The translations under genes and the position numbers were made by a program. This document shows positions 9,764 through 33,569 of a DNA stretch of 33,571 bases, one piece after another; within the stretch, counting starts at the first letter, position 1, and every line of letters starts with the position of its first letter. Source of the stretch: Promethearchaeota archaeon. Lineage in GTDB: Archaea; Asgardarchaeota; Lokiarchaeia; Sigyniarchaeales; SOKP01. The stretch covers positions 1-33,571 of the forward strand of contig RDOA01000042.1 in the NCBI GenBank assembly GCA_011364925.1, read 5' to 3'. The notes under the pieces were generated by a model. It was not told where the DNA came from. It worked only from the letters and a program-made list of their open reading frames with translations, and did no database searches.

Positions 9764-11242
9764 ATGAATATAGACGATTTTGAATTAATTTATAAGAATA
9801 ATCGTAAAGAAATAAAAAATAAAACATTAATAAAAACTGAATTGAGTGAATTTCTTGGAGAAAAGAATGTTTCAATAAAAAATGCTGATTTACTTGCTTA
9901 TACAAGAGATTCAAGTCTTATTGCTTTAAATTGGACAATCCAAGGAAAAATTGCAGGCTTACCAGATTTCATTACTTGGCCAGAAACTAAAGAACAGATT
10001 TCCAAGATTTTAAAGCTTGCGAATAAGGAGAAGATTCCTGTAATCCCCTACTCTGAGGGATCTGGAGTTGTTGGAGGATCTATTCCAATTTATGGTGGAA
10101 TCATTATCGATATGAAGAAATTTAATAAAATATTAGAAATAAACGATAAAAACCTCACAGTTACGGCTCAAACAGGGATAAATGGGATGAATTTAGAACG
10201 ATATTTGAATTCTAAAGGTTATACTAGTGGTCATATACCCCAATCGCTTTATACATCTTCTTTGGGTGGGTGGATCGCGCATAGAGCTGCGGGTCAGTTT
10301 TCAACGAAATACGGAAAAATTGAAGATATTGTTATGGGTATGGAGGTTATTTTACCCCTAGGTGAAATTATCAAGTTTAAACCTATTGCGAGAGCGGCTA
10401 CAGGTCCTCAACTTGATAAAATGTTTATAGGAGGGGAAGGTACGTTGGGAATTGTAACAGAAGCAACGTTAAAAATTTGGCCCTATCCAGAAAAAAGAAC
10501 ATTGATCTCTTATTCTTTTCCAACAATAGAAGATTCGTTTAATGCAACGAGAGAAATCCTTAGAGAAAATGTCTATCCCGCAGTGATAAGAATCTATGAT
10601 GTACACGAAACTGACAGGCATTTTTCTGAAGTTGAAAATGCGAAGAAAAGAGTAATGACAGTTTTTGTGTGTGAAGGAAATAAAAAGCTAGTTGATGTAG
10701 AGGAAGCAATAACAAGAGAGATGTGTGAAAAAAATGCGGGGATTAACTGTGGAACTGGTCCTGTGGAGCATTGGTTTGAGACAAGATTTAGAGTAACTGA
10801 AACATCTACTATGTCGCCCTACAAATTAGTGTATGATACGGTTGAAGTTGCCTCGTTATGGGATAGAGCTGCGAGAATCTATCACTCTGTTGTAGAAGCT
10901 ACTGATAGGATTAAAGGAAATTTGTTAATTACTGCTCATGTTTCACATTTTTATGCTAATGGTGTTGGTACTTACTTCACATTTGGTGGCGTACCTCCAA
11001 AAGGAGTGTCTGATCTTGAATTTTACCAAGAGTGTTGGGATTCAATTATTAAAGCTGTTTTAGAAGCGGGTGGTTCTATTGCACATCATCATGGAATAGG
11101 TATTAATCGAGCTCATTGGATGAAAAAAGAATGGGGAACTGCAATAAATGTGATGAAAGATATTAAAAAATTGCTAGATCCTAGTAATATTCTCAATCCT
11201 GGCAAAATTTACGAGGATATATGGAAAGGAGGTGTTGAATAA
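9764..11242 (+). CDS. FAD-binding oxidoreductase, VAO/PCMH family, alkyl-dihydroxyacetonephosphate synthase (AGPS/ADPS)-like
   Basis: FAD loop PYSEGSGVVGG, GHIPQS..SSLGGWIA.RAAGQFSTKYGKIED, GGEGTLGIVT, PAVIRIYD, GTYFTF, the HHHGIG triad and DPSNILNPGK. Confidence 0.88.
   Translation: MNIDDFELIYKNNRKEIKNKTLIKTELSEFLGEKNVSIKNADLLAYTRDSSLIALNWTIQGKIAGLPDFITWPETKEQISKILKLANKEKIPVIPYSEGSGVVGGSIPIYGGIIIDMKKFNKILEINDKNLTVTAQTGINGMNLERYLNSKGYTSGHIPQSLYTSSLGGWIAHRAAGQFSTKYGKIEDIVMGMEVILPLGEIIKFKPIARAATGPQLDKMFIGGEGTLGIVTEATLKIWPYPEKRTLISYSFPTIEDSFNATREILRENVYPAVIRIYDVHETDRHFSEVENAKKRVMTVFVCEGNKKLVDVEEAITREMCEKNAGINCGTGPVEHWFETRFRVTETSTMSPYKLVYDTVEVASLWDRAARIYHSVVEATDRIKGNLLITAHVSHFYANGVGTYFTFGGVPPKGVSDLEFYQECWDSIIKAVLEAGGSIAHHHGIGINRAHWMKKEWGTAINVMKDIKKLLDPSNILNPGKIYEDIWKGGVE
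11228..11234 (+). promoter_or_regulatory. Ribosome-binding site GGAGGTG for the 11243 gene
   Basis: GGAGGTG lies 8 nt before ATG 11243; the upstream TAA abuts this ATG. Confidence 0.7.
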
Positions 11243-12517
11243 ATGGGTGCTTTTGAAACATTGAAAAAGTATAAATGGATGATTCCTCTTCTTAATAAAG
11301 CAGATAGGGACATTAAATCAATACTTATGAAAAACATGCGCTCGAAAGAAAAGAATTTTTACCCAGAAGGAGAATATAAAGCTGATGTAGATAACCTAAT
11401 TAAATGTATGTTATGTCCAAATATGTGTCGATTCGATTGCGGCACACTTCAAGCTTCGCAAACTGAAAGCATGAGTCCCTCGTATAAAGCGAGAATAGGA
11501 TACTATCTAACAATTGGTAAGATTGACCCAACCAAGGAAGAAAATAGTGATTTCATTGACTTTATGTATAAATGCTCCAATGAGGAAAACTGTAAGATTT
11601 GGTGCCCATTTGGATTTTCAGTAGTATCATTATTAGAAACTGTAAGAGACGATTTAAACAGCAAAGGACTTACGCCCGATTATTGTAAAGAACAAATTAA
11701 AAAGTTAGAAGAATCAAACACAATAGAAGGTTATAATATCTACGATACTTACAAAGAACATGGTATTGAAAACATCGAAACCGAAGGGAATGACGATGTG
11801 TTTTATTATATTGGTTGCGAATCGATGAAATTTCCCGATGTAATAAAAGCTAATATTAGTATCCTACAAAAAGCTGGAGTTAAATTTTCAACGAATCTTG
11901 AGAAAAAGGTTTGCTGTGGGGGGCCATCATTTAACATAAGAGATTCTGATACAGCAGAAAAATTTGCTAAAAAAAATCAAGAACTGATTGAATCTACTGG
12001 AGCTAAAATCATTGTATCCGATTGTCCTGGTTGCGTTCTGACACTCACAAAAAGGTATGAAAGTATAGGTATAAAAATAGAGAAAAAAATAATTCACATT
12101 GTAGAATACATCAAACAATTGTTAGAAGAGGGAAAGATAAACCCTACTAAAAATGTACCTGTTGAATTGAAAAAGGTGACAATTCATGATCCATGTCTCA
12201 TAGCCAGAAATTTAAATGATACTGCTTCAATTAGGGCCATACTAGGTAGAATTCAAGATTTAGAAATAGTTGAGCCGATTTATAATAAGGAATATGTCCA
12301 TTGTTGCGGATGGAGCGGTACTGCTCATTGGGCTGACAGAGTACTAGCTATTAAGGAAGCTTCAAATAGAATAGATGAATTACGGGAAACAGGAGCTGAA
12401 GTTTTTGTATCAGCATGTCCTTTGTGTGAATTAGGATTGAATTATGGGATTAACCCAGAAGAGAAAGAAAAGTTTAAAATACTAGATGTATCTGAATTAT
12501 TAGTAAAAAGCCTTTAA
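11243..12517 (+). CDS. Fe-S oxidoreductase with ferredoxin-like and two CCG domains (GlpC/GlcF/HdrD family)
   Basis: CMLCPNMCRFDC and degenerate CSNEENCKIWCP, then YYIGC..CCGG..DCPGC and HDPC..CCGW..ACPLC. Confidence 0.9.
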   Translation: MGAFETLKKYKWMIPLLNKADRDIKSILMKNMRSKEKNFYPEGEYKADVDNLIKCMLCPNMCRFDCGTLQASQTESMSPSYKARIGYYLTIGKIDPTKEENSDFIDFMYKCSNEENCKIWCPFGFSVVSLLETVRDDLNSKGLTPDYCKEQIKKLEESNTIEGYNIYDTYKEHGIENIETEGNDDVFYYIGCESMKFPDVIKANISILQKAGVKFSTNLEKKVCCGGPSFNIRDSDTAEKFAKKNQELIESTGAKIIVSDCPGCVLTLTKRYESIGIKIEKKIIHIVEYIKQLLEEGKINPTKNVPVELKKVTIHDPCLIARNLNDTASIRAILGRIQDLEIVEPIYNKEYVHCCGWSGTAHWADRVLAIKEASNRIDELRETGAEVFVSACPLCELGLNYGINPEEKEKFKILDVSELLVKSL

Positions 12518-12527
12518 AGGTGATAAG

Positions 12528-13991
12528 ATGAGCGATTTAATATGTGTATTTGATGTAGGTACTACTGGAACAAGAACAGTGATCTTCGATAACAATGGAA
12601 AGGAAATAGCCAGAGCTTATGAAGAATATGTAATCCCCTCTCAACCAGTAGGAATCTCGGAGCAAGCCCCTCAAGTTTGGTGGAATGCAATAAAAAATAC
12701 TTCAAATATAGTTATGAAGAGTGGAAAATTCGACCCGAATGATATTGTGGGAATTTCAGCTTCATTTGCTAGGGGAACTACAACACTAATAAATAAAAAT
12801 AGAGAAGTCTTGCACCCAGCATTAACCTGGATGGATGAGAGAGAATTAACTGATGCAAAGGGATTTAACGAAGAGTTAACTTGGAGGAATTCAATTCCGA
12901 AATTGTTATGGTTAAAGAAAAACAAACCAGACTTATTTTCTAAAGCTTTTAAAATTGTTTGTCCCGATTCATATACTTATATGAAGTTATGTGATGAAAT
13001 TGTAACAGATCCAACAAATGCAATCAATGGAATTTTAAATTTAAGAACTCTAAAATTAGATAATGAACTTGCAGAAGCATATGAGATTCCACTAGAATTA
13101 TGGCCTGAGGTACATCGTCCTGGTGAAGTGATTGGTGAATTATCTAACAAGGCAGCGAATGAATTAGGAATTAATAGAAATATTCCTATATTTTTAGGTG
13201 GTGGAGATCAACAATGTGCTTCTTTAGGGCTTGGTGTAATTGAAAATGGAGATGCAAAAACAACAACAGGCACTGGTACTATTGTAGAACTTGTTGTTGA
13301 TGAACCAATAAGAACATCAGGAGAAATACCAATATTCACTTTTCCACATTTGATTGAAGGTAAATGGGTTCTTGAGGGTGTAATGCCTGGTACGGGAACG
13401 ATGTTTCAAACATATGCAAGAAACTTTTCACAATTACAACTGAAAGAATCTGAGGAATTAAGCACAAGTGTTTACGATATATTGACCAAAGAAGCTGAGC
13501 AAGCCCCTCCTGGTAGTAATGGTTTATTGTTCGTTCCTCTCTATATATTTAGGAAAGGAACAATACATGGATTAGGTTGGCACCATGGTAGACCACATTT
13601 TGCCAGAGCGATAATGGAGAGCGCTGCATTATCTGCAAATATGTATTTAGGTATGCTTGAGGCTATAGCAAGAGTAAAAACCACTGAAGTAAAGGTAGAT
13701 GGAGGTGGAATGCATAGCGATTTATGGGGACAAATATTTGCGGATATAATGGATAGGAAAATTTTAATCCCTGAAAATAAAGATGGAGGAGCACTTGGCG
13801 CAGCGATATTAGGCTTTTATGGTGCTAGAACATATAACACAATAAAAGATGCTATTAATAGCATGAGCAGATTTGTCTCTGAGAAGAACCCAATAAAAGA
13901 AAACGTAAAAGCTTATAAGAAACTTGTAAGGCTATTCATGCCTACTGTTCTCGAAACTAATGAAAAGAAAAGAGTTACAAAAGATTTATAG
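12528..13991 (+). CDS. FGGY-family carbohydrate/polyol kinase (xylulokinase/glycerol kinase-like)
   Basis: FDVGTTGTR, TWMDER, GGGDQQCA, TTGTGT, APPGSNGL, VDGGG and ALGAAIL motifs; AGGTGA RBS upstream. Confidence 0.92.
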   Translation: MSDLICVFDVGTTGTRTVIFDNNGKEIARAYEEYVIPSQPVGISEQAPQVWWNAIKNTSNIVMKSGKFDPNDIVGISASFARGTTTLINKNREVLHPALTWMDERELTDAKGFNEELTWRNSIPKLLWLKKNKPDLFSKAFKIVCPDSYTYMKLCDEIVTDPTNAINGILNLRTLKLDNELAEAYEIPLELWPEVHRPGEVIGELSNKAANELGINRNIPIFLGGGDQQCASLGLGVIENGDAKTTTGTGTIVELVVDEPIRTSGEIPIFTFPHLIEGKWVLEGVMPGTGTMFQTYARNFSQLQLKESEELSTSVYDILTKEAEQAPPGSNGLLFVPLYIFRKGTIHGLGWHHGRPHFARAIMESAALSANMYLGMLEAIARVKTTEVKVDGGGMHSDLWGQIFADIMDRKILIPENKDGGALGAAILGFYGARTYNTIKDAINSMSRFVSEKNPIKENVKAYKKLVRLFMPTVLETNEKKRVTKDL

Positions 13992-14238
13992 TTCAATTTC
14001 AAGAAAAAATGGGACGAATTCCTTAGAAGAAATCCTAGATCAATTAGTTCTATATACTTTTTCATTTAAAAGCACGAAATTATGTGAAAAAAATTCAGTA
14101 ATTTTTACATTTTAGTTTCTAATTAGTAGAATATTTTCAAAGAAAATAAAAGAAAACCTAAAGGGTGTTCATTTTAGAAAAGTATTTCTTGACTCTTTTA
14201 TTTAAAAATTTAAACCCAAGAAATTAATTTGTGATACC

Positions 14239-15075
14239 ATGCCCTTCTTTAGAAACCAAGAAGGATACAATTTATATTACGAAGATATCAATGGAGAAAT
14301 TAAGGAGCAGACCAAAGGTACGATAATCTTGCTTCATGGTTTCGCCTCCTCAGCTTCATTTTTCAAAGGGCAAATAAAAATGTTAAAAAATTCTTATCGC
14401 ATTATTGCTTTCGATGCGTTAGGGCATGGTAAAAGCGATCATCCCATAAAGTTGAATCTTTCTAAAAATTTACGGTATGATATTATTAGAGATTTGGAGG
14501 ATTTGTTAAAGCATTTAGGAGTCGACGAAAATTTTGGAATTATCGGTCATTCGTTAGTAGGTGGTATGATTGGTCAACTAATTAGTATAGCTCACCCTGA
14601 AAATGTTGATTTTCTCATTTTACTTAATTCAGGATATATCATGATTGATAATGTAATTAGAAATATATTTTACAATCTACTCCCGTATTTTATTAGGATA
14701 AATTTCTTAGACGTTGTTGCCAATTCTGTTGAAACTATCTTAGATAAAATTATACCTTACATCCTAACTTCATTAGCGGACTCTATAAATGGGATGAAGT
14801 TAACGAAAGATGAATTGTATATGCTTATAGAAGACCAAATCTTCGGAATGATTAAGGAAATTAATGAGTATGACCCCTCCGGAATTAATTGCCCGACACT
14901 TATTATTGCTGGTCGATTAGATAATTTCGCTCCAGAACAAATGTCTGAAGAACTGCATAAGAAAATTCCAAACTCTCGTTTGGAAATATTGGATATGGCA
15001 GGACACTTCGCACCAGCTCAACGAAAGGAGGTAATTAACGAGTTAATATGCGATTTTATAAAAGATCTTGATTAA
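14239..15075 (+). CDS. Alpha/beta-fold hydrolase (esterase/lipase-like)
   Basis: Oxyanion motif LLHGF, FDALGHGKS, nucleophile elbow GHSLVGG, acid in GRLD and His in AGHF. Confidence 0.9.
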   Translation: MPFFRNQEGYNLYYEDINGEIKEQTKGTIILLHGFASSASFFKGQIKMLKNSYRIIAFDALGHGKSDHPIKLNLSKNLRYDIIRDLEDLLKHLGVDENFGIIGHSLVGGMIGQLISIAHPENVDFLILLNSGYIMIDNVIRNIFYNLLPYFIRINFLDVVANSVETILDKIIPYILTSLADSINGMKLTKDELYMLIEDQIFGMIKEINEYDPSGINCPTLIIAGRLDNFAPEQMSEELHKKIPNSRLEILDMAGHFAPAQRKEVINELICDFIKDLD

Positions 15076-27296: not shown

Positions 27297-28205
27297 ATGA
27301 GCGATAATAATTCCAAAAGGTTCGTCGTTTTTGACGGCAAAAAAATTCATGTAGAAGAAGGATGCCTTTATCTCGTCGATCGTAATATTCAAAACATCGA
27401 AGATATAGAAGGACTCGCAGATCTCCCCGATTTAAAAAAAATATGCCTTAACCTTAATAATATCTCTGAAATTAACGGTCTTGACTCCCTTGTAAACCTT
27501 GAAGAGTTACAATTGCGTTCCAACAAAATTGAAGTAATATCCGGGCTTGAAAACCTTAAAAGTTTAAAGATTCTTAAACTGGAATACAATAACATCAAAA
27601 AGATTTCTGGACTCGACACACTGGAGAATCTTGAATATCTAACCCTCGGAGCGAATAAAATTACGAAAATTGAAGGGCTCGATAACCTTAAAAACTTGAA
27701 ATACTTGTCCTTTGCTGATTCTGCTGAAGGATATGGCAATTACATAAAAAAAGTTGAAGGATTAGATACTCTGGTTAATCTAGAAACTCTTGATTTAAGT
27801 TGCAACCAAATTGAGTCTATAAGTGGGCTGACTCAACTATCAAACTTGAGAGCGTTAGACCTTTTCGAAAATAACATAACAAGCATTGATGGGTTAGAAA
27901 ACCTCTCAAAATTACAAGACTTAAATCTTAATAATAACCAGATCTTAAGCCTTAATAGACTACAGGGGCTATCAAACCTAGAAATCTTAAGATTATCTGA
28001 AAATAAAATTAGCCAAATCAGAGATTTAAGTAATCTCGACTCGTTAGTTGTTCTTAAACTTAATTACAATTCAATTACTCATGTGAATGATATCAAAGTG
28101 GGGAAAAACTTGCGTGAAATCTATTTTACTGGAAATCCCGTTTCCCATGAAGATCTAGAAGGATTAGGAATTAGAAAAGACGGTAAAGTCGTGTACTTCA
28201 AGTAA
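27297..28205 (+). CDS. Leucine-rich repeat protein (SDS22-like 22-aa repeats)
   Basis: About 11-12 repeats of LxxLxxLxLxxNxIxxIxGLxx; ends with an LREIYFTGNPV cap. Confidence 0.95.
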   Translation: MSDNNSKRFVVFDGKKIHVEEGCLYLVDRNIQNIEDIEGLADLPDLKKICLNLNNISEINGLDSLVNLEELQLRSNKIEVISGLENLKSLKILKLEYNNIKKISGLDTLENLEYLTLGANKITKIEGLDNLKNLKYLSFADSAEGYGNYIKKVEGLDTLVNLETLDLSCNQIESISGLTQLSNLRALDLFENNITSIDGLENLSKLQDLNLNNNQILSLNRLQGLSNLEILRLSENKISQIRDLSNLDSLVVLKLNYNSITHVNDIKVGKNLREIYFTGNPVSHEDLEGLGIRKDGKVVYFK

Positions 28206-28331: not shown

Positions 28332-28988
28332 ATGTTCTTTGGTAAACGATTTAGTGGACATGAAAGTGGAATTGTATCTGGATTAGATATCTTAGTTCTT
28401 TCTATTATAGAAAATTACGACGGTATCTCGGGGTACGATTTGATTAGAAGCATCAACGATAAGTTCGAAAAACTATGGCATGCTTCACCCGGAACCATCT
28501 ATCCTTTGCTTAATCGATTATCTAACCGAGGCTTTATTGAAATGGAGATGGTAGTTAAAAATAATCGTAATCTAAAATTGTATAGGATAACTGAGTTGGG
28601 TAAAAAGAAATTAAAAGAAGTTCTCAAGAGCAACTTAGAACCAAGTATCGACACTCTGGGGGAATACCTCAGAACTATCGTACAGACTTGGAGTCCCAAC
28701 GAAGAGAGAATACATAGTATAATGTCTTGTTTCCCGTACCATCGTGAGCAATTTCATAGACAAATTGATGAAGAAGATTATTCAATTGCAAACATTGAAC
28801 GTGTCGAAAGAATATTAAGTGAACTTAATTTTACTGAAAAAAGGCTTTCAAAAAGACTAGAGCACATTAAAGGTAGAATTTCTCATTTTGAAGGAATATT
28901 AGAGGAATTGAAAAGTAAAAGAGAAGAGAATACAAGAAAGATAGAAATCCTTGACGAAGAAGAATACGATGATTTCAAAAAATTTTAG
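28332..28988 (+). CDS. PadR-family transcriptional regulator with C-terminal coiled coil
   Basis: SGYDLI, SPGTIYPLLNRL...GFI and KLYRITELG; AGGTGA RBS. Confidence 0.93.
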   Translation: MFFGKRFSGHESGIVSGLDILVLSIIENYDGISGYDLIRSINDKFEKLWHASPGTIYPLLNRLSNRGFIEMEMVVKNNRNLKLYRITELGKKKLKEVLKSNLEPSIDTLGEYLRTIVQTWSPNEERIHSIMSCFPYHREQFHRQIDEEDYSIANIERVERILSELNFTEKRLSKRLEHIKGRISHFEGILEELKSKREENTRKIEILDEEEYDDFKKF

Positions 28989-29037
28989 TTTTCACCACCC
29001 ATATCCAACTATAGAATTGAGAAAAGAGGTAAAAAAA

Positions 29038-29508
29038 ATGTGTGATGATAGGCATTATGGCCATAGGCAAATGCATGGTTGTTTCTCATTTAGCCCAAGA
29101 GACGTAGCAAGAATGAAGCGAATGGCTCATCAATTCATGGGAAGCTTCATGGGGAGCTATATCCACCATAACATCGAAGATTTAGGAGACGAGTACTTAA
29201 TCACAGTACCACTACCAGGTCGAACTAAGGAAGATGTAACAGTTTCTCTTATTAATAAACATTTAAATATTAAAGCATCAAAGCCAAAAATTCCAGAACA
29301 TGAAAAAGTCAAAAAAGAACCTGAAGAACAAGGATTCCCATTCATGTTTAGAGGCTTCACCTTTATAGATGTAAACATGGATGTCCCACTTCCTGCGGAC
29401 GCTGATGAAAATAAAATTTCGTCTAAAATGGTTAATGGACTTTTAAGGGTTATAATAGGAAAAAAACCAGCAAAACCAATAGATATTAGTGAAGAACCAA
29501 ATAATTAA
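29038..29508 (+). CDS. Small heat-shock protein (Hsp20/alpha-crystallin)
   Basis: YLITVPLPGRTKEDV and PLP....ISSKMVNGLLRVII. ATG 29038 follows a GAGGT RBS and is preferred over TTG 28951. Confidence 0.9.
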   Translation: MCDDRHYGHRQMHGCFSFSPRDVARMKRMAHQFMGSFMGSYIHHNIEDLGDEYLITVPLPGRTKEDVTVSLINKHLNIKASKPKIPEHEKVKKEPEEQGFPFMFRGFTFIDVNMDVPLPADADENKISSKMVNGLLRVIIGKKPAKPIDISEEPNN

Positions 29509-29766: not shown

Positions 29767-32352
29767 ATGAATAGAAGTAAATTGAAAAAAGTAAAAACTC
29801 ACCCCGTAAATTATGTCCTACTAGCAGTATCTCTTATTATATTTGGATCTTTAGGTTTAATCTTCATAACTCAGATGGAACTTCAACCAGGTTGGTTATG
29901 GGAAGAAGTTAGGAATGAAAATTCAATGACGATGTCAATTATTCGAGCTGACGACCTTAACGAAGAAAAAGACGGGTTTTTAGATATAATAGCCTATAGT
30001 GATGTCAGGTGGCAAGATCACAGAAAAGCAGATGACCCTAATGACATTCCTAATTATGGGAAAATTTTTGCTTTAGATGGTTTAACTGGAGAAAGAATTT
30101 GGGTCAAAGATTGCGAAAATCCAGTGAAAGGTGTATTTGAAGTAATGGATGTAAATGGAGACGGTTACAAAGATTATTTTGCAGACATTGCCTCAGTGGA
30201 GTCGGAATGGGACGATCGCAATCCTAAAATTATTCCTGATGAATTTACTAACATTTTAATTCGTGGCGATAACGGATCGGATATTCCAATACTTACTGGT
30301 GATCATCGTAGTTTTACTAATTTTTTCGTACCCGATTTAGTTTATTTAGAAGATCTAAACGATGAAAAGCCCGATCTAGTAATTATAGAATGCGAAAACA
30401 GGACTAGTGTAGGTAATGAATATTTTATTAATGTATCTAGCTATTTCGTAAATGGAACAAAGTTTAGCACATTCTACATAGACTATAGTTATATTGGAGA
30501 TCTAGAGGCAATACCAGCACTTGAATTATTCCCTTATGGTAATCAAGATCACATCCTATTTTTAGATAAAAATAAAATCATGCTGTTGAATAATAGTGCC
30601 TTAAATTTCTTGAATCCAATATATAATGAAACCGTAATGGATTACACAAGTGAATATTCAGTTTTAGAGGACATAAATGGTGATAATGTCCCGGAAATAA
30701 TAATAACAACGCAAGAGGGAAATGTTACAATAGTAAGCGGAATTGATGGAACTGTTATGAGAACATTCAACCTCCCTCGAGAGTTAGAATACCGGAATTA
30801 CAGAATTGATACAATTGGTTCTAATCCAAGCGATCAAGAAGCAATTGTAATGTTCTGGGCAGAATATGGAGAGGAATTTGTTCCTTGGAGAGAAGCTCAA
30901 ATATTAATCTACACAATAACAGGCACTTTTGAAACACTTTTGCAGGCAATCTATGATCGAACAGAAGAGGACATAATGAGAATCTTCCCATTAGGAGAGG
31001 ATATGAACGGAGATTCTATTGATGAAGTCGTCCTTTTTGAAAGAATTGTACCATACTATGCAACTAACGAAGTTCGACGTTTTAGGATAATCAATATAGT
31101 TGACATGGAAGATTTTGCAGTCATAAATATTGACCAAGGCGGAGAATTTTTCTTACCTTTGCAAGATTTTAACGGAGATGGGAAGGGAGACTTTCTTATG
31201 GCATCTGATGATATAGTCGTTGCCCTAGCTTCTTCAAAACCACAATCGTTGTGGCAATCTCCTTACTTCCCTTTAGGATTTCCGCTTTTTATTATCCTTA
31301 TAGCAATGTTGTGTATTGGAATACTTCTAGTTATCTTAAAAGGTCGGCAATTAAGTTATAGTAGAAAAAAGATTAAGGAACACAAACTAACTGTTGTCGT
31401 AAATGTAGCTGCTGTAGCACTGATTTCACTAACATTTTTAATGTTTCTGATACAACTTAATATTTTTAATAACACTCTGATTCTTGGTCAAAATATGACA
31501 ACAATTGTAATAAGTTTCTTAACAGTTCTAATAACATGGTACGGTGCTTTGCCATTAACTGCGGCACTATACAATCGATTTGCGCCCAGATTTGCCTATA
31601 CATTCATAAAGTTGCGTTCTTTGTTTTTCAAGATATCGAGGAACTACCATACTGACATATTAGTAATCGATATGAAGAACCGTAAAGAAATAGGTACAAT
31701 CATCCAACTAAAAAGAGTTATTTTGCCTTTATTGCTGTCTATAGCAATAGGTTTCTATGCGTATGGATTAATAGCTCCGATTTTTGGTTTTCCTTCAGAA
31801 TTTGAGGTTTTTGGATCAACAGAATTTTTCCAATTCATGAATGGTTATATCCTATGTTGTATTTTTCCGATGATTTTGACATTTCTGATATTTTCCTTCT
31901 TCATTTCAGGTAATTTCCTCTTGGATGATGCTGGAATAGTCTATTTTCGCCAATCCAAAAAATACCGGCAACCGGGAGATATCGAACCAATTAGTATATG
32001 GGCACAATCAATCGTAAAGGGTATAGCAGGAACTTCTGCAATAATAACATTAATCGGATTTTTAACAACGGTAGATTTTACCGGCTTCTTTGAAGATCAA
32101 GACAGTTTCACCGGATTAATCTTAATGTTTTTAATAATCTTAGTTTTCTTCATTGGAATTCCATTTTTAACCGCTTTTTCATATATCCTTTTATCAGGCG
32201 AAGTAATGGAATTTTCTATGGATTTCAACACGCAAAAACTATATTCTTTGATGGAAAAGAAAGGATACGACACGACTCCAAGAGATATTACCAATCTCTA
32301 TCCTGAAGGATTTATTGGACGAAATAATAACACTAACCATCGAGAATTATAA
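29767..32352 (+). CDS. FG-GAP/VCBS-repeat beta-propeller protein fused to a C-terminal ~7-TM domain
   Basis: N-terminal signal/anchor; Ca-binding DxNGDG-type repeats (DLNEEKDGFLD, DVNGDGYKD, DLNDEKPD, DINGDNVPE, DMNGDSIDE, DFNGDGKGD); seven hydrophobic segments in the last ~360 aa. Confidence 0.85.
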   Translation: MNRSKLKKVKTHPVNYVLLAVSLIIFGSLGLIFITQMELQPGWLWEEVRNENSMTMSIIRADDLNEEKDGFLDIIAYSDVRWQDHRKADDPNDIPNYGKIFALDGLTGERIWVKDCENPVKGVFEVMDVNGDGYKDYFADIASVESEWDDRNPKIIPDEFTNILIRGDNGSDIPILTGDHRSFTNFFVPDLVYLEDLNDEKPDLVIIECENRTSVGNEYFINVSSYFVNGTKFSTFYIDYSYIGDLEAIPALELFPYGNQDHILFLDKNKIMLLNNSALNFLNPIYNETVMDYTSEYSVLEDINGDNVPEIIITTQEGNVTIVSGIDGTVMRTFNLPRELEYRNYRIDTIGSNPSDQEAIVMFWAEYGEEFVPWREAQILIYTITGTFETLLQAIYDRTEEDIMRIFPLGEDMNGDSIDEVVLFERIVPYYATNEVRRFRIINIVDMEDFAVINIDQGGEFFLPLQDFNGDGKGDFLMASDDIVVALASSKPQSLWQSPYFPLGFPLFIILIAMLCIGILLVILKGRQLSYSRKKIKEHKLTVVVNVAAVALISLTFLMFLIQLNIFNNTLILGQNMTTIVISFLTVLITWYGALPLTAALYNRFAPRFAYTFIKLRSLFFKISRNYHTDILVIDMKNRKEIGTIIQLKRVILPLLLSIAIGFYAYGLIAPIFGFPSEFEVFGSTEFFQFMNGYILCCIFPMILTFLIFSFFISGNFLLDDAGIVYFRQSKKYRQPGDIEPISIWAQSIVKGIAGTSAIITLIGFLTTVDFTGFFEDQDSFTGLILMFLIILVFFIGIPFLTAFSYILLSGEVMEFSMDFNTQKLYSLMEKKGYDTTPRDITNLYPEGFIGRNNNTNHREL

Positions 32353-32865
32353 TTTTTTTTCTTTATTTTTCTTTTTGTACTTCATCACTAGATACATAAA
32401 ATATAAGACAATAGCAGCAAGAAAACAATATCCACAGAAATTATAAATGATATTAGATACCAAATCCGATGTGTTTAAGAGTGGATTGAACTTTAAAGGG
32501 AAAAATGGTTGCATATCAGAATACAGTGGAGCATCTAGTAGAAGGTGCGTATAAATTCCAATAATGGAAGCGGCTAAAACTCTCACGAATGAAAATTTTT
32601 GCTCAATTTTAAAAAAAGCCTTAATTGGGTTCAAAATAGGGCTTACTTTATACATAATCAACGAAAGTGGGATAATGACGATTGTTCCTCCTAAAAATGT
32701 ATGAAAAAACCCATGCAAGGGATAATTCAAATTAAAAATTAAAACGAAGAATGGTTCTATATCCAAAATTACGCTTGCGACCAGTAAAGTAGGGAAATCG
32801 AGGTAATATATAAGGATAATACCAATTACTAAAGCTGGTCCTAAATGGAATGGAGTAAATGGCAT
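32347..32865 (-). CDS. Membrane-bound metal-dependent hydrolase (YdjM-like)
   Basis: MPFTPFH, LDIE, HGFFHT and HLLLD metal-ligand motifs with several TM segments. Confidence 0.85.
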   Translation of the reverse strand: MPFTPFHLGPALVIGIILIYYLDFPTLLVASVILDIEPFFVLIFNLNYPLHGFFHTFLGGTIVIIPLSLIMYKVSPILNPIKAFFKIEQKFSFVRVLAASIIGIYTHLLLDAPLYSDMQPFFPLKFNPLLNTSDLVSNIIYNFCGYCFLAAIVLYFMYLVMKYKKKNKEKKL

Positions 32866-32975: not shown

Positions 32976-33569
32976 TTATCTTCTAAGTTTCTTGTTTCTA
33001 ATGATTATGAAAACAATAAGAACTATGCTACCAGCAATCGTAATTATCAAAATTAGATAGAATAACCAGTCTGAATTAGAGCTTGTTATTTGATAAATTA
33101 TATTACCACCCAAGTCTTTTACCGTAAAGGAAGACATCATCCCTTTCGTACCATACGAAATTTCGACAGTATAATTTGTTAAACCATAGCGTTCAATAAT
33201 AAGCGTTGATCCATTTATTGTAGCATTTTCGCATCCAAGTTCGCTAACTAAAGTTTCTAAGTAATCAGTCTGAGGATCAGCGATCGCAAGTCCATGTAAA
33301 GCAAGTAGCCAAAGAAAATCATCTGCACTTACAAATGGGAAGGACGCTGATGTAGTTACGTTTAGTTCCATTGCTAAGTCATTATAATCGTCCAACATTG
33401 TTTTAAAATCTAAAGGATTCTGAAGTACTATTATACCGGCTTGAAGCCTTAGACTCTTAAATGCAATATACATATTAAGAATATTCCTATTGCTTGGATC
33501 TTCTTCGTAATCATTTGTTGTATAATTCCATACCGCTCGTAATCCATACCATAAGTTGTAATAATTTGG
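32976..33569 (-). CDS. Surface/secreted protein with C-terminal TM anchor, 5' partial
   Basis: The frame stays open to the window edge (PNYYNLWYGLRAVWNYTT...). It has several N-x-S/T sequons and a C-terminal TM followed by RNKKLRR. Confidence 0.75.
   Translation of the reverse strand, partial: PNYYNLWYGLRAVWNYTTNDYEEDPSNRNILNMYIAFKSLRLQAGIIVLQNPLDFKTMLDDYNDLAMELNVTTSASFPFVSADDFLWLLALHGLAIADPQTDYLETLVSELGCENATINGSTLIIERYGLTNYTVEISYGTKGMMSSFTVKDLGGNIIYQITSSNSDWLFYLILIITIAGSIVLIVFIIIRNKKLRR

Follow-up and report, generated by a model that had tools for sequence, protein, structure and literature searches.

What does an archaeon do with a protein that carries a large adhesion-like domain outside the cell and a bundle of helices in the membrane, an arrangement best known from the adhesion G-protein-coupled receptors (GPCRs) of eukaryotes? 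The question is raised by a gene on contig RDOA01000042.1 of a Promethearchaeota archaeon (GenBank assembly GCA_011364925.1; positions 1 to 33,571, the whole stretch of 33,571 nucleotides that was analysed and is herein referred to as the window). An initial reading of this DNA (herein referred to as the original prediction) described the product as an integrin-like FG-GAP beta-propeller fused to a seven-helix transmembrane (TM) domain, likened it to adhesion GPCRs and suggested that it acts as a cell-contact or ligand sensor. We find that the architecture holds, whereas the analogy with adhesion GPCRs is unsupported, having no sequence or fold signal behind it and a family core of six TM helices against it. 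The gene belongs to a real, undescribed membrane protein family in which a propeller of a known type sits on a core without any database relative; the propeller occupies the first outside loop of a protein with eight TM helices, six of which form the core of the family, and it is in this core that we tentatively place the primary activity of the family.

The gene spans positions 29767-32352 of the forward strand (861 codons and a stop codon), exactly the open reading frame that had been called, and both its translation and its homologues mark it as genuine. Indeed, the ATG start agrees with that of the homologues, in which M1 is nearly invariant, and a word-indexed protein search returned 74 full-length homologues (44–85% identity, nearly all of about 860 amino acids) that retain the whole layout, so the joining of a propeller to a TM domain is not a product of chance. 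The source genome carries one copy (a single match).

A Kyte-Doolittle hydropathy scan called an N-terminal helix (TM0, residues 14-36; 29806-29874) and seven further hydrophobic segments between residues 503 and 812, and the same seven helices are present in an AlphaFold model of residues 490-861. Behind a basic cytoplasmic N-terminus (residues 1-13; 29767-29805) and TM0 lies the ectodomain (residues 37-502; 29875-31272), after which the chain crosses the membrane from outside to inside in TM1 (residues 503-525; 31273-31341) and returns by way of cytoplasmic loop 1-2 (residues 526-543; 31342-31395) in TM2 (residues 544-564; 31396-31458). Outside loop 2-3 (residues 565-578; 31459-31500), which carries two conserved N-glycosylation sequons (NNT and NMT; N568/T570 and N576/T578 are invariant or nearly so among homologues), leads to TM3 (residues 579-600; 31501-31566), cytoplasmic loop 3-4 (residues 601-650; 31567-31716), TM4 (residues 651-673; 31717-31785), the acidic outside loop 4-5 (residues 674-692; 31786-31842), TM5 (residues 693-716; 31843-31914), cytoplasmic loop 5-6 (residues 717-747; 31915-32007), TM6 (residues 748-768; 32008-32070), the acidic outside loop 6-7 (residues 769-782; 32071-32112), TM7 (residues 783-812; 32113-32202) and a cytoplasmic tail (residues 813-861; 32203-32349).

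Lysine and arginine residues number 5, 6, 11, 4 and 6 in the N-terminus, loops 1-2, 3-4 and 5-6 and the tail, respectively, and 0, 0 and 0 in loops 2-3, 4-5 and 6-7. By the positive-inside rule these charges are unambiguous and the topology is therefore clear: the N-terminus is inside, the ectodomain outside and the C-terminus inside, and the conserved sequons in the ectodomain and in loop 2-3 agree with their predicted outside location. The basic loops after TM1, TM3 and TM5, together with the N-out/C-in orientation of the block that follows the ectodomain, were thus read correctly from the start; the count of seven helices stands for that block but not for the whole protein, which apparently has eight TM helices once TM0 is included. 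TM0 is probably not cleaved. It is conserved and, in the homologue alignment, F33, T35, Q36, M37 and E38 at its outer end are invariant, which argues against a cleaved signal peptide; it is also kept directly before TM1 in relatives that lack the ectodomain.

The ectodomain (466 amino acids) is acidic, with 88 aspartate and glutamate against 33 lysine and arginine residues. The roughly six DxNGDG-like repeats that had been noticed in it resolve into four strict DxNGD loops (at residues 128, 302, 412 and 467), a fifth Ca-loop motif at residue 63, interrupted here by a short insertion but canonical in the majority of homologues, and a sixth, degenerate one at about residue 196; the acidic positions of these motifs are invariant in 41 homologues. 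All eight of the sequons listed for the ectodomain are present in the sequence and several are invariant or nearly invariant across homologues (N229-G-T231, N222, N275/S277 and N287). Recognition by Pfam is borderline, FG-GAP_3 (PF13517) scoring 28.2 bits against a cut-off of 26.9 and FG-GAP (PF01839) falling just under its own (21.8 against 22.1), and several homologues have precomputed matches to PF01839/PF13517.

An AlphaFold model of residues 38-500, computed with an alignment of the 41 homologues, is confident (predicted local distance difference test [pLDDT] 85.1; predicted TM-score [pTM] 0.87), all-beta with 33 strands, and extends up to TM1. Foldseek matched this model to integrin alphaV, ITFG2, WDR41, BamB and designer propellers at E values of about 1e-8, with which weak PDB profile matches to BamB and ITFG2 are in accord; the best structural matches from VIA are eight-bladed (WDR41, BamB, Cdc4 and the Ika8/Tako8 designer propellers), and integrin alphaV also matches. 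From the model, we take the ectodomain to be a beta-propeller, six of whose blades carry Ca-loop motifs of FG-GAP type. The total is probably eight blades, not seven as in integrin alpha, the number having been counted from secondary structure and not from coordinates (33 strands, or about 8 × 4 + 1). The integrin-like propeller of the original prediction hence survives as a propeller with FG-GAP-type loops, but its closest matches are eight-bladed and not the seven-bladed integrin-alpha head. Sequence identity to the propellers of integrin alphaV, ITFG2, BamB and WDR41 is only 9–13%, and the seven blades of integrin alpha precede a single TM helix, whereas here apparently eight are inserted in a loop of a polytopic protein. 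Because FG-GAP propellers are widespread in prokaryotes, "integrin-like" describes a fold and not a eukaryotic affinity.

Is the seven-helix block, then, the unit that evolution has conserved? A HMMER pass with the TM domain over 1.84 billion representatives returned 109 clusters (those distant clusters that were scanned are all without a Pfam match), and the family falls into three architectures. The first, that of the source protein, comprises TM0, a propeller of about 460 amino acids and seven TM helices, and the second (900–1430 amino acids) comprises TM0, a different and larger ectodomain without Pfam match and seven TM helices. The third is without an ectodomain and exists in two forms, one of 430–460 amino acids in which TM1 follows directly upon TM0 to give eight TM helices, and one of about 300 amino acids, labelled Thor-, Sif- or Hodarchaeota, with about six TM helices that correspond to TM2-TM7. 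Good alignment with the shortest form starts at TM3, and its members retain R650 and W-L-L-(D/E)-D-x-G-V. As both six- and eight-helix relatives exist without an ectodomain, the evolutionary module is a 6-TM core and not the 7TM domain that had been supposed; an N-terminal TM0–TM1 hairpin, added in Lokiarchaeia-type members, hosts the ectodomains in its outside loop. The equivalence of TM0 between short and long forms is inferred from its position rather than from an alignment.

The membrane region is also more conserved than the propeller, with a mean top-residue frequency of 0.79 against 0.565 and a mean column identity of 73% against 53%. The most conserved stretch is loop 5-6 (0.87–0.88 per 30-residue block), which bears the signature F/W-L-L-D-D-x-G-V (717-724), a beta-hairpin (724-730 and 738-741) and residues R734, D738, S743 and W745. 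Loop 3-4 contains a conserved NRFAP, a helix extension, a beta-strand (627-634) and R650, and the tail has a conserved helix (about 818-831) and a conserved G-Y-D-T-T-P-R-D, its last 15 or so residues being variable and of low confidence in the model. Together, the cytoplasmic segments amount to about 125 amino acids and are highly conserved. Across 50 distant relatives (about 20–30% identity) the signature residues of loop 5-6 are 90–100% conserved and the longer motif P-x-x-W-L-L-D-D-x-G-V (714-724) is 86–100% conserved, with R650 retained in 98%, L719 in 100%, D720 in 96%, D721 in 98%, G723 in 100% and W745 in 92% of them; R734, D738 and S743 are likewise near-universal, as are G752, G755 and A758 in TM6. 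In the superfamily alignment A4, loop 5-6 is nearly invariant throughout, and R156, L225 and G229 (equivalent to R650, L719 and G723) are invariant. According to topology and model, the conserved cluster sits at the cytoplasmic membrane boundary (at the ends of TM4 and TM5) or in the sheet built by the loops, and its location in the model agrees with the positive-inside topology.

No known family accounts for this core. The membrane part has no Pfam or NCBIfam match, and weak Pfam tallies in 41 members (DUF5380, DUF6338, SLATT_6, DUF7937 and DUF373; best E values 0.01–0.3) were rejected as composition noise. PDB sequence searches with profiles A2, A3 and A4 gave, for the TM part, only noise from GPCRs, cytochrome oxidase and claudin. 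Besides its seven helices, the TM model (AlphaFold, residues 490-861) contains a C-terminal helix and a three-stranded sheet formed by loops 3-4 and 5-6, and fold searches with it (Foldseek against the PDB, VIA wide and VIA second look) returned no match above noise: the best Foldseek E value against the PDB was 1.7, at a TM-score below 0.2, and transporter chains stayed at noise level (Foldseek E values of 2–4 with TM-scores of at most 0.18; VIA Z of at most 4.1). GPCR, rhodopsin, SWEET, TMEM16 and transporter folds were not found in these searches with a moderate-confidence model, and no WLS/GOST chains were among the matches. An ESM Atlas feature search with the TM domain gave no usable match. 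The only structural neighbours of the TM model are two ESM Atlas clusters (294 and 325 amino acids; TM-scores of 0.53–0.68 over 246–269 residues) that are both 100% archaeal (Promethearchaeota and Thorarchaeota), annotated as "hypothetical protein" and homologous in sequence to the family core; they have the membrane core in common with the source protein and are without TM0, TM1 and ectodomain. PADLOC defence models returned nothing relevant for the protein and its neighbours, and a homodimer prediction for the TM domain (median 0.35 against a mark of 0.42) counts neither for nor against a dimer. By Pfam, NCBIfam, PDB, fold and genome searches alike, the TM part is hence without a match to a known transporter or a widespread bacterial family.

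We hypothesize, at what we would put somewhat short of an even chance, that the family has a core-centred activity to which a propeller module was acquired here. The core occurs bare and is the most constrained part, and the primary activity of the family is therefore placed in it; sensing by the propeller, on the same grounds, is probably not the primary function, and the role of cell-contact or ligand sensor originally proposed for the protein remains conjectural. The core comprises about six TM helices, loop 3-4, loop 5-6 and the tail are predicted to form a small beta-sheet/helix mini-domain, and the cytoplasmic face bears the nearly invariant charged cluster (R650, D720-D721 in WLLDDxGV, R734, D738 and W745). 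In Lokiarchaeia-type members the TM0–TM1 hairpin precedes the core, giving eight TM helices with both termini inside, and here the outside loop of the hairpin has expanded into the probably eight-bladed, N-glycosylatable propeller with its FG-GAP-type Ca loops. Under our hypothesis, the conserved activity at the cytoplasmic membrane face may be that of a channel, a transporter or a membrane enzyme, with the acid/base cluster most likely acting on a small substrate such as an ion or a lipid head-group. The propeller would have been added later to bind a partner outside the cell (a glycan, a protein or the surface of another cell), and would localize or regulate the core and not define its function.

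Several points weigh against this hypothesis. The core has no Pfam, NCBIfam, PDB-sequence or fold precedent, and no activity can be named for it; an internal repeat typical of many transporters was not detected (hhalign comparisons of helix pairs and core halves all gave below 4% probability), and the neighbourhoods of paralogues offer no recurrent or consistent enzymatic or transport partner. The TM model is of moderate confidence (pLDDT 72.5; pTM 0.67) and omits TM0, which lies outside the modelled range. The Arg/Asp-Asp cluster might just as well serve as a salt bridge that stabilizes the structure or as a protein-docking switch, like the DRY motif of GPCRs, and variable outside domains on a constant membrane module are the classic pattern of a receptor.

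A true surface receptor is indeed the first alternative to be weighed: the propeller would sense a ligand or contact, the bundle would transmit the signal and the cytoplasmic mini-domain would recruit or activate a soluble partner, such as an Asgard small GTPase, in a GPCR-like logic without GPCR homology. Beyond the constant module with its variable ectodomains across paralogues, the highly conserved cytoplasmic segments would suit a receptor, as would the order of one TM helix, ectodomain and seven TM helices with both termini inside, which is the layout of Wntless-type receptors. One paralogue of 463 amino acids is divergent beside an Arf-like GTPase gene, and the synteny with genes for a PadR regulator and Hsp20 described below would suit a stress-sensing module. 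However, ectodomain-less members are common in the family, no known output domain was found with Pfam or NCBIfam, the GTPase neighbour is a single case in GTPase-rich genomes while other neighbourhoods differ, and the sequence upstream of the propeller-TM gene contains no palindrome resembling a PadR operator. On balance, we regard such a receptor as unlikely.

If the weight is shifted to the outside of the cell altogether, the protein might be an adhesin or surface scaffold, the glycosylated, Ca-binding propeller being its functional part and the polytopic domain an anchor or a part of an envelope complex. FG-GAP-type and PQQ-like propellers are common adhesion and scaffold modules; the best fold matches of this acidic, sequon-rich ectodomain include BamB and EMC1, accessory subunits of membrane complexes; a convergent downstream gene encodes another anchored surface protein in 15 loci, and longer paralogues overlap upstream genes for secreted proteins (one, for example, with a NosD domain). 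An anchor, however, would have no need of seven additional helices, conservation is higher at the cytoplasmic face than in the propeller and the core occurs without any ectodomain; we judge this alternative quite improbable.

Wntless and the GOST proteins have the same layout as the source protein: they start with a TM helix that is not cleaved, continue with a large domain rich in beta structure on the lumenal or extracellular side and end in seven helices, with both termini cytoplasmic, and they were recovered in no search here. Their ectodomain is a GOLD sandwich whereas here it is a propeller, PDB searches by sequence and by fold returned no similar chain for the TM part, and the conserved unit here is the 6-TM core. 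One could nonetheless picture an Asgard-invented receptor or cargo receptor, in which interchangeable outside domains are coupled via the 8-TM module to a mini-domain that engages small-GTPase or trafficking machinery, as an independent or ancestral counterpart of Wntless, GOST or GPCR signalling with a membrane fold unseen in solved structures; we consider this a long shot. Two further systems are comparable in part. Bacterial 7TMR-DISM proteins share the concept of a variable extracellular domain on a multi-helix membrane module in a prokaryote, but here neither the query nor 41 members have a 7TMR-DISM_7TM or DISMED Pfam match, no output domain is recognisable and the family is essentially Asgard-only. 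TM9SF/EMP70 proteins have nine TM helices and an EMP70 domain, whereas the source protein has eight helices and no EMP70 match.

With adhesion GPCRs the protein has in common a large adhesion-type ectodomain followed by seven helices in N-out/C-in orientation, but it has no GAIN/GPS or 7tm_2 Pfam match, no fold match and an extra conserved N-terminal TM helix; Pfam searches for 7tm_1, 7tm_2 and 7tm_3 gave no match, either with the query (E values up to 10) or with the 41 members (E values up to 5). We give next to no credence to a distant homology of the protein with the 7TM receptors of eukaryotes (GPCRs of the adhesion, class C or GOST type), which would make it a new eukaryotic signature protein: the orientation of its seven helices after an ectodomain, matches of profile A4 to two class A GPCR chains (E value 0.013) and the report of other Asgard 7TM/GPCR-like structural clusters shared with eukaryotes (2026 preprint, doi 10.64898/2026.10.28.762692) speak for it, but the two matches are in inconsistent registers (query TM1-3 align to TM5-7 of HCAR2 and to TM3-5 of 5-HT1F) and therefore reflect hydrophobic composition, 7tm_1/2/3, GPS/GAIN, Lung_7-TM_R, EMP70 and 7TMR-DISM have no Pfam match at E values up to 5 in the 41 members, the ESM Atlas neighbours are 100% archaeal, so that the family is not of the eukaryote-shared sort, and the family unit has six or eight TM helices, not seven. 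With no GPCR, rhodopsin, 7TMR-DISM or TM9SF signal by sequence or fold, the GPCR-flavoured reading should be dropped. Within the collection of papers searched, none connects Asgard archaea or Lokiarchaeota to proteins of the FG-GAP, integrin or propeller-TM kind, and none describes this family.

The family has a narrow distribution. The source names of all 74 full-length homologues are Asgard (Lokiarchaeota/Promethearchaeota, Thor-, Heimdall- or Hermodarchaeota), and a scan of one genome per species across 185,579 species, queried with the two most conserved peptides, found 57 loci, every one labelled Promethearchaeota/Promethearchaeia, Hod-, Hermod- or Odinarchaeota or as a metagenome-assembled genome of an uncultured archaeon. 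NCBI taxonomy places Promethearchaeota within the kingdom Promethearchaeati, which we take to be the Asgard group. Relatives from the HMMER pass that carry source names are Asgard-labelled except one (P0175, 504 amino acids, from Candidatus Bathyarchaeota archaeon; E value 1.9e-7), a label that could stem from mis-binning or a rare transfer. Judged by the labels of its sequences, the family is almost exclusively Asgard, and the original assignment of the source to a probable Asgard archaeon, here of Promethearchaeota/Lokiarchaeia type, agrees with homologue labels, species scan and taxonomy. Matches occur in 93 of 400 genomes of the phylum. The orthologue (E value below 1e-130) is confined to the source's own family, in which 67 of 134 genomes match at E values of 1e-5 or less, and even within its own genus the distribution is uneven: the gene is present in 24 of 41 genomes, and no match was obtained in several genomes whose completeness is 95% or more.

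Upstream of the propeller-TM gene, on the forward strand, lie genes for a PadR-family regulator (28332-28988; Pfam PadR, E value 1.6e-15) and Hsp20 (28951-29508; Pfam HSP20, E value 1.1e-9). Among the 44 related loci whose upstream sequence extends for 1.5 kb or more, a same-strand Hsp20 gene is found at most 800 bp upstream of the propeller-TM gene in 28 and a PadR gene in 25; PadR–Hsp20 order and strand are kept in most loci of close orthologues, and divergent orthologues are without both. The palindrome ATCGAATATTCGAT occurs only upstream of padR, and a shared PadR operator was rejected as the palindrome is absent upstream of the propeller-TM gene, where the 258-bp spacer instead holds a T-run and AT-rich promoter-like sequence. 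Such a spacer suggests that the PadR/Hsp20 genes, although syntenic, are probably transcribed separately from the propeller-TM gene; they are syntenic neighbours, and a functional link is not part of our claim. The PadR found near a Thor-type short form is not orthologous to that of the source. A gene-neighbourhood survey, which the original prediction had suggested, hence yields a recurrent pair upstream of close orthologues but no such partner beside paralogues, whose neighbours (a NosD-domain gene, UbiA genes and an Arf-like GTPase) occur once or twice each, UbiA twice and both times on Thor-labelled contigs.

Downstream and on the reverse strand, a gene for a YdjM/DUF4184-like membrane protein (32347-32865) is convergent with the propeller-TM gene and overlaps its 3' end by 6 bp; in only two related loci does a YdjM-like gene stand beside the propeller-TM gene, on the same strand there. 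Beyond it, also convergent and on the reverse strand, lies a gene for a C-terminally anchored surface protein without Pfam match (32976-33569, cut by the end of the window). Homologues of about 320 amino acids hold the same convergent position in 15 related loci, and this protein is a possible candidate for an extracellular partner of the propeller-TM protein.

The paralogues have surroundings of their own. Two long ones (1163 and 1434 amino acids; loci L060, 3698-9492, and L062, 1-5210) start 4 bp inside the preceding gene, which at L060 encodes a 768-amino-acid NosD-domain (beta-helix) protein; a two-component-system gene cluster lies just downstream at this locus. Such overlaps suggest operons of surface proteins. 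At locus L069 (3823-6392), a 463-amino-acid ectodomain-less paralogue is divergent to a 318-amino-acid Arf/Gtr1-like small GTPase gene across a gap of 222 bp, a single adjacency that may be due to chance in GTPase-rich genomes. Elsewhere in the window, positions 27297-28205 of the forward strand encode a 302-amino-acid protein that consists nearly entirely of leucine-rich repeats (LRR_4, E value 1.4e-39), with no signal peptide or TM helix evident; a 2026 preprint reports an enrichment of leucine-rich repeat solenoids in Asgard archaea. Positions 9764-15075 of the forward strand hold a tight, co-oriented row of Pfam-confirmed genes for an FAD-linked oxidase, a CCG-domain protein, an FGGY kinase and an alpha/beta hydrolase.

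For the family as a whole, these results describe a modular system: one core is found on its own, beneath a propeller or beneath other large ectodomains. The look of an adhesion domain followed by seven helices is not evidence of GPCR ancestry, since what is conserved is a core of six TM helices to which a hairpin of TM helices was added. We see the family as a candidate for a surface function specific to Asgard archaea, one concrete enough to be tested, and perhaps also as a candidate for a new membrane fold.

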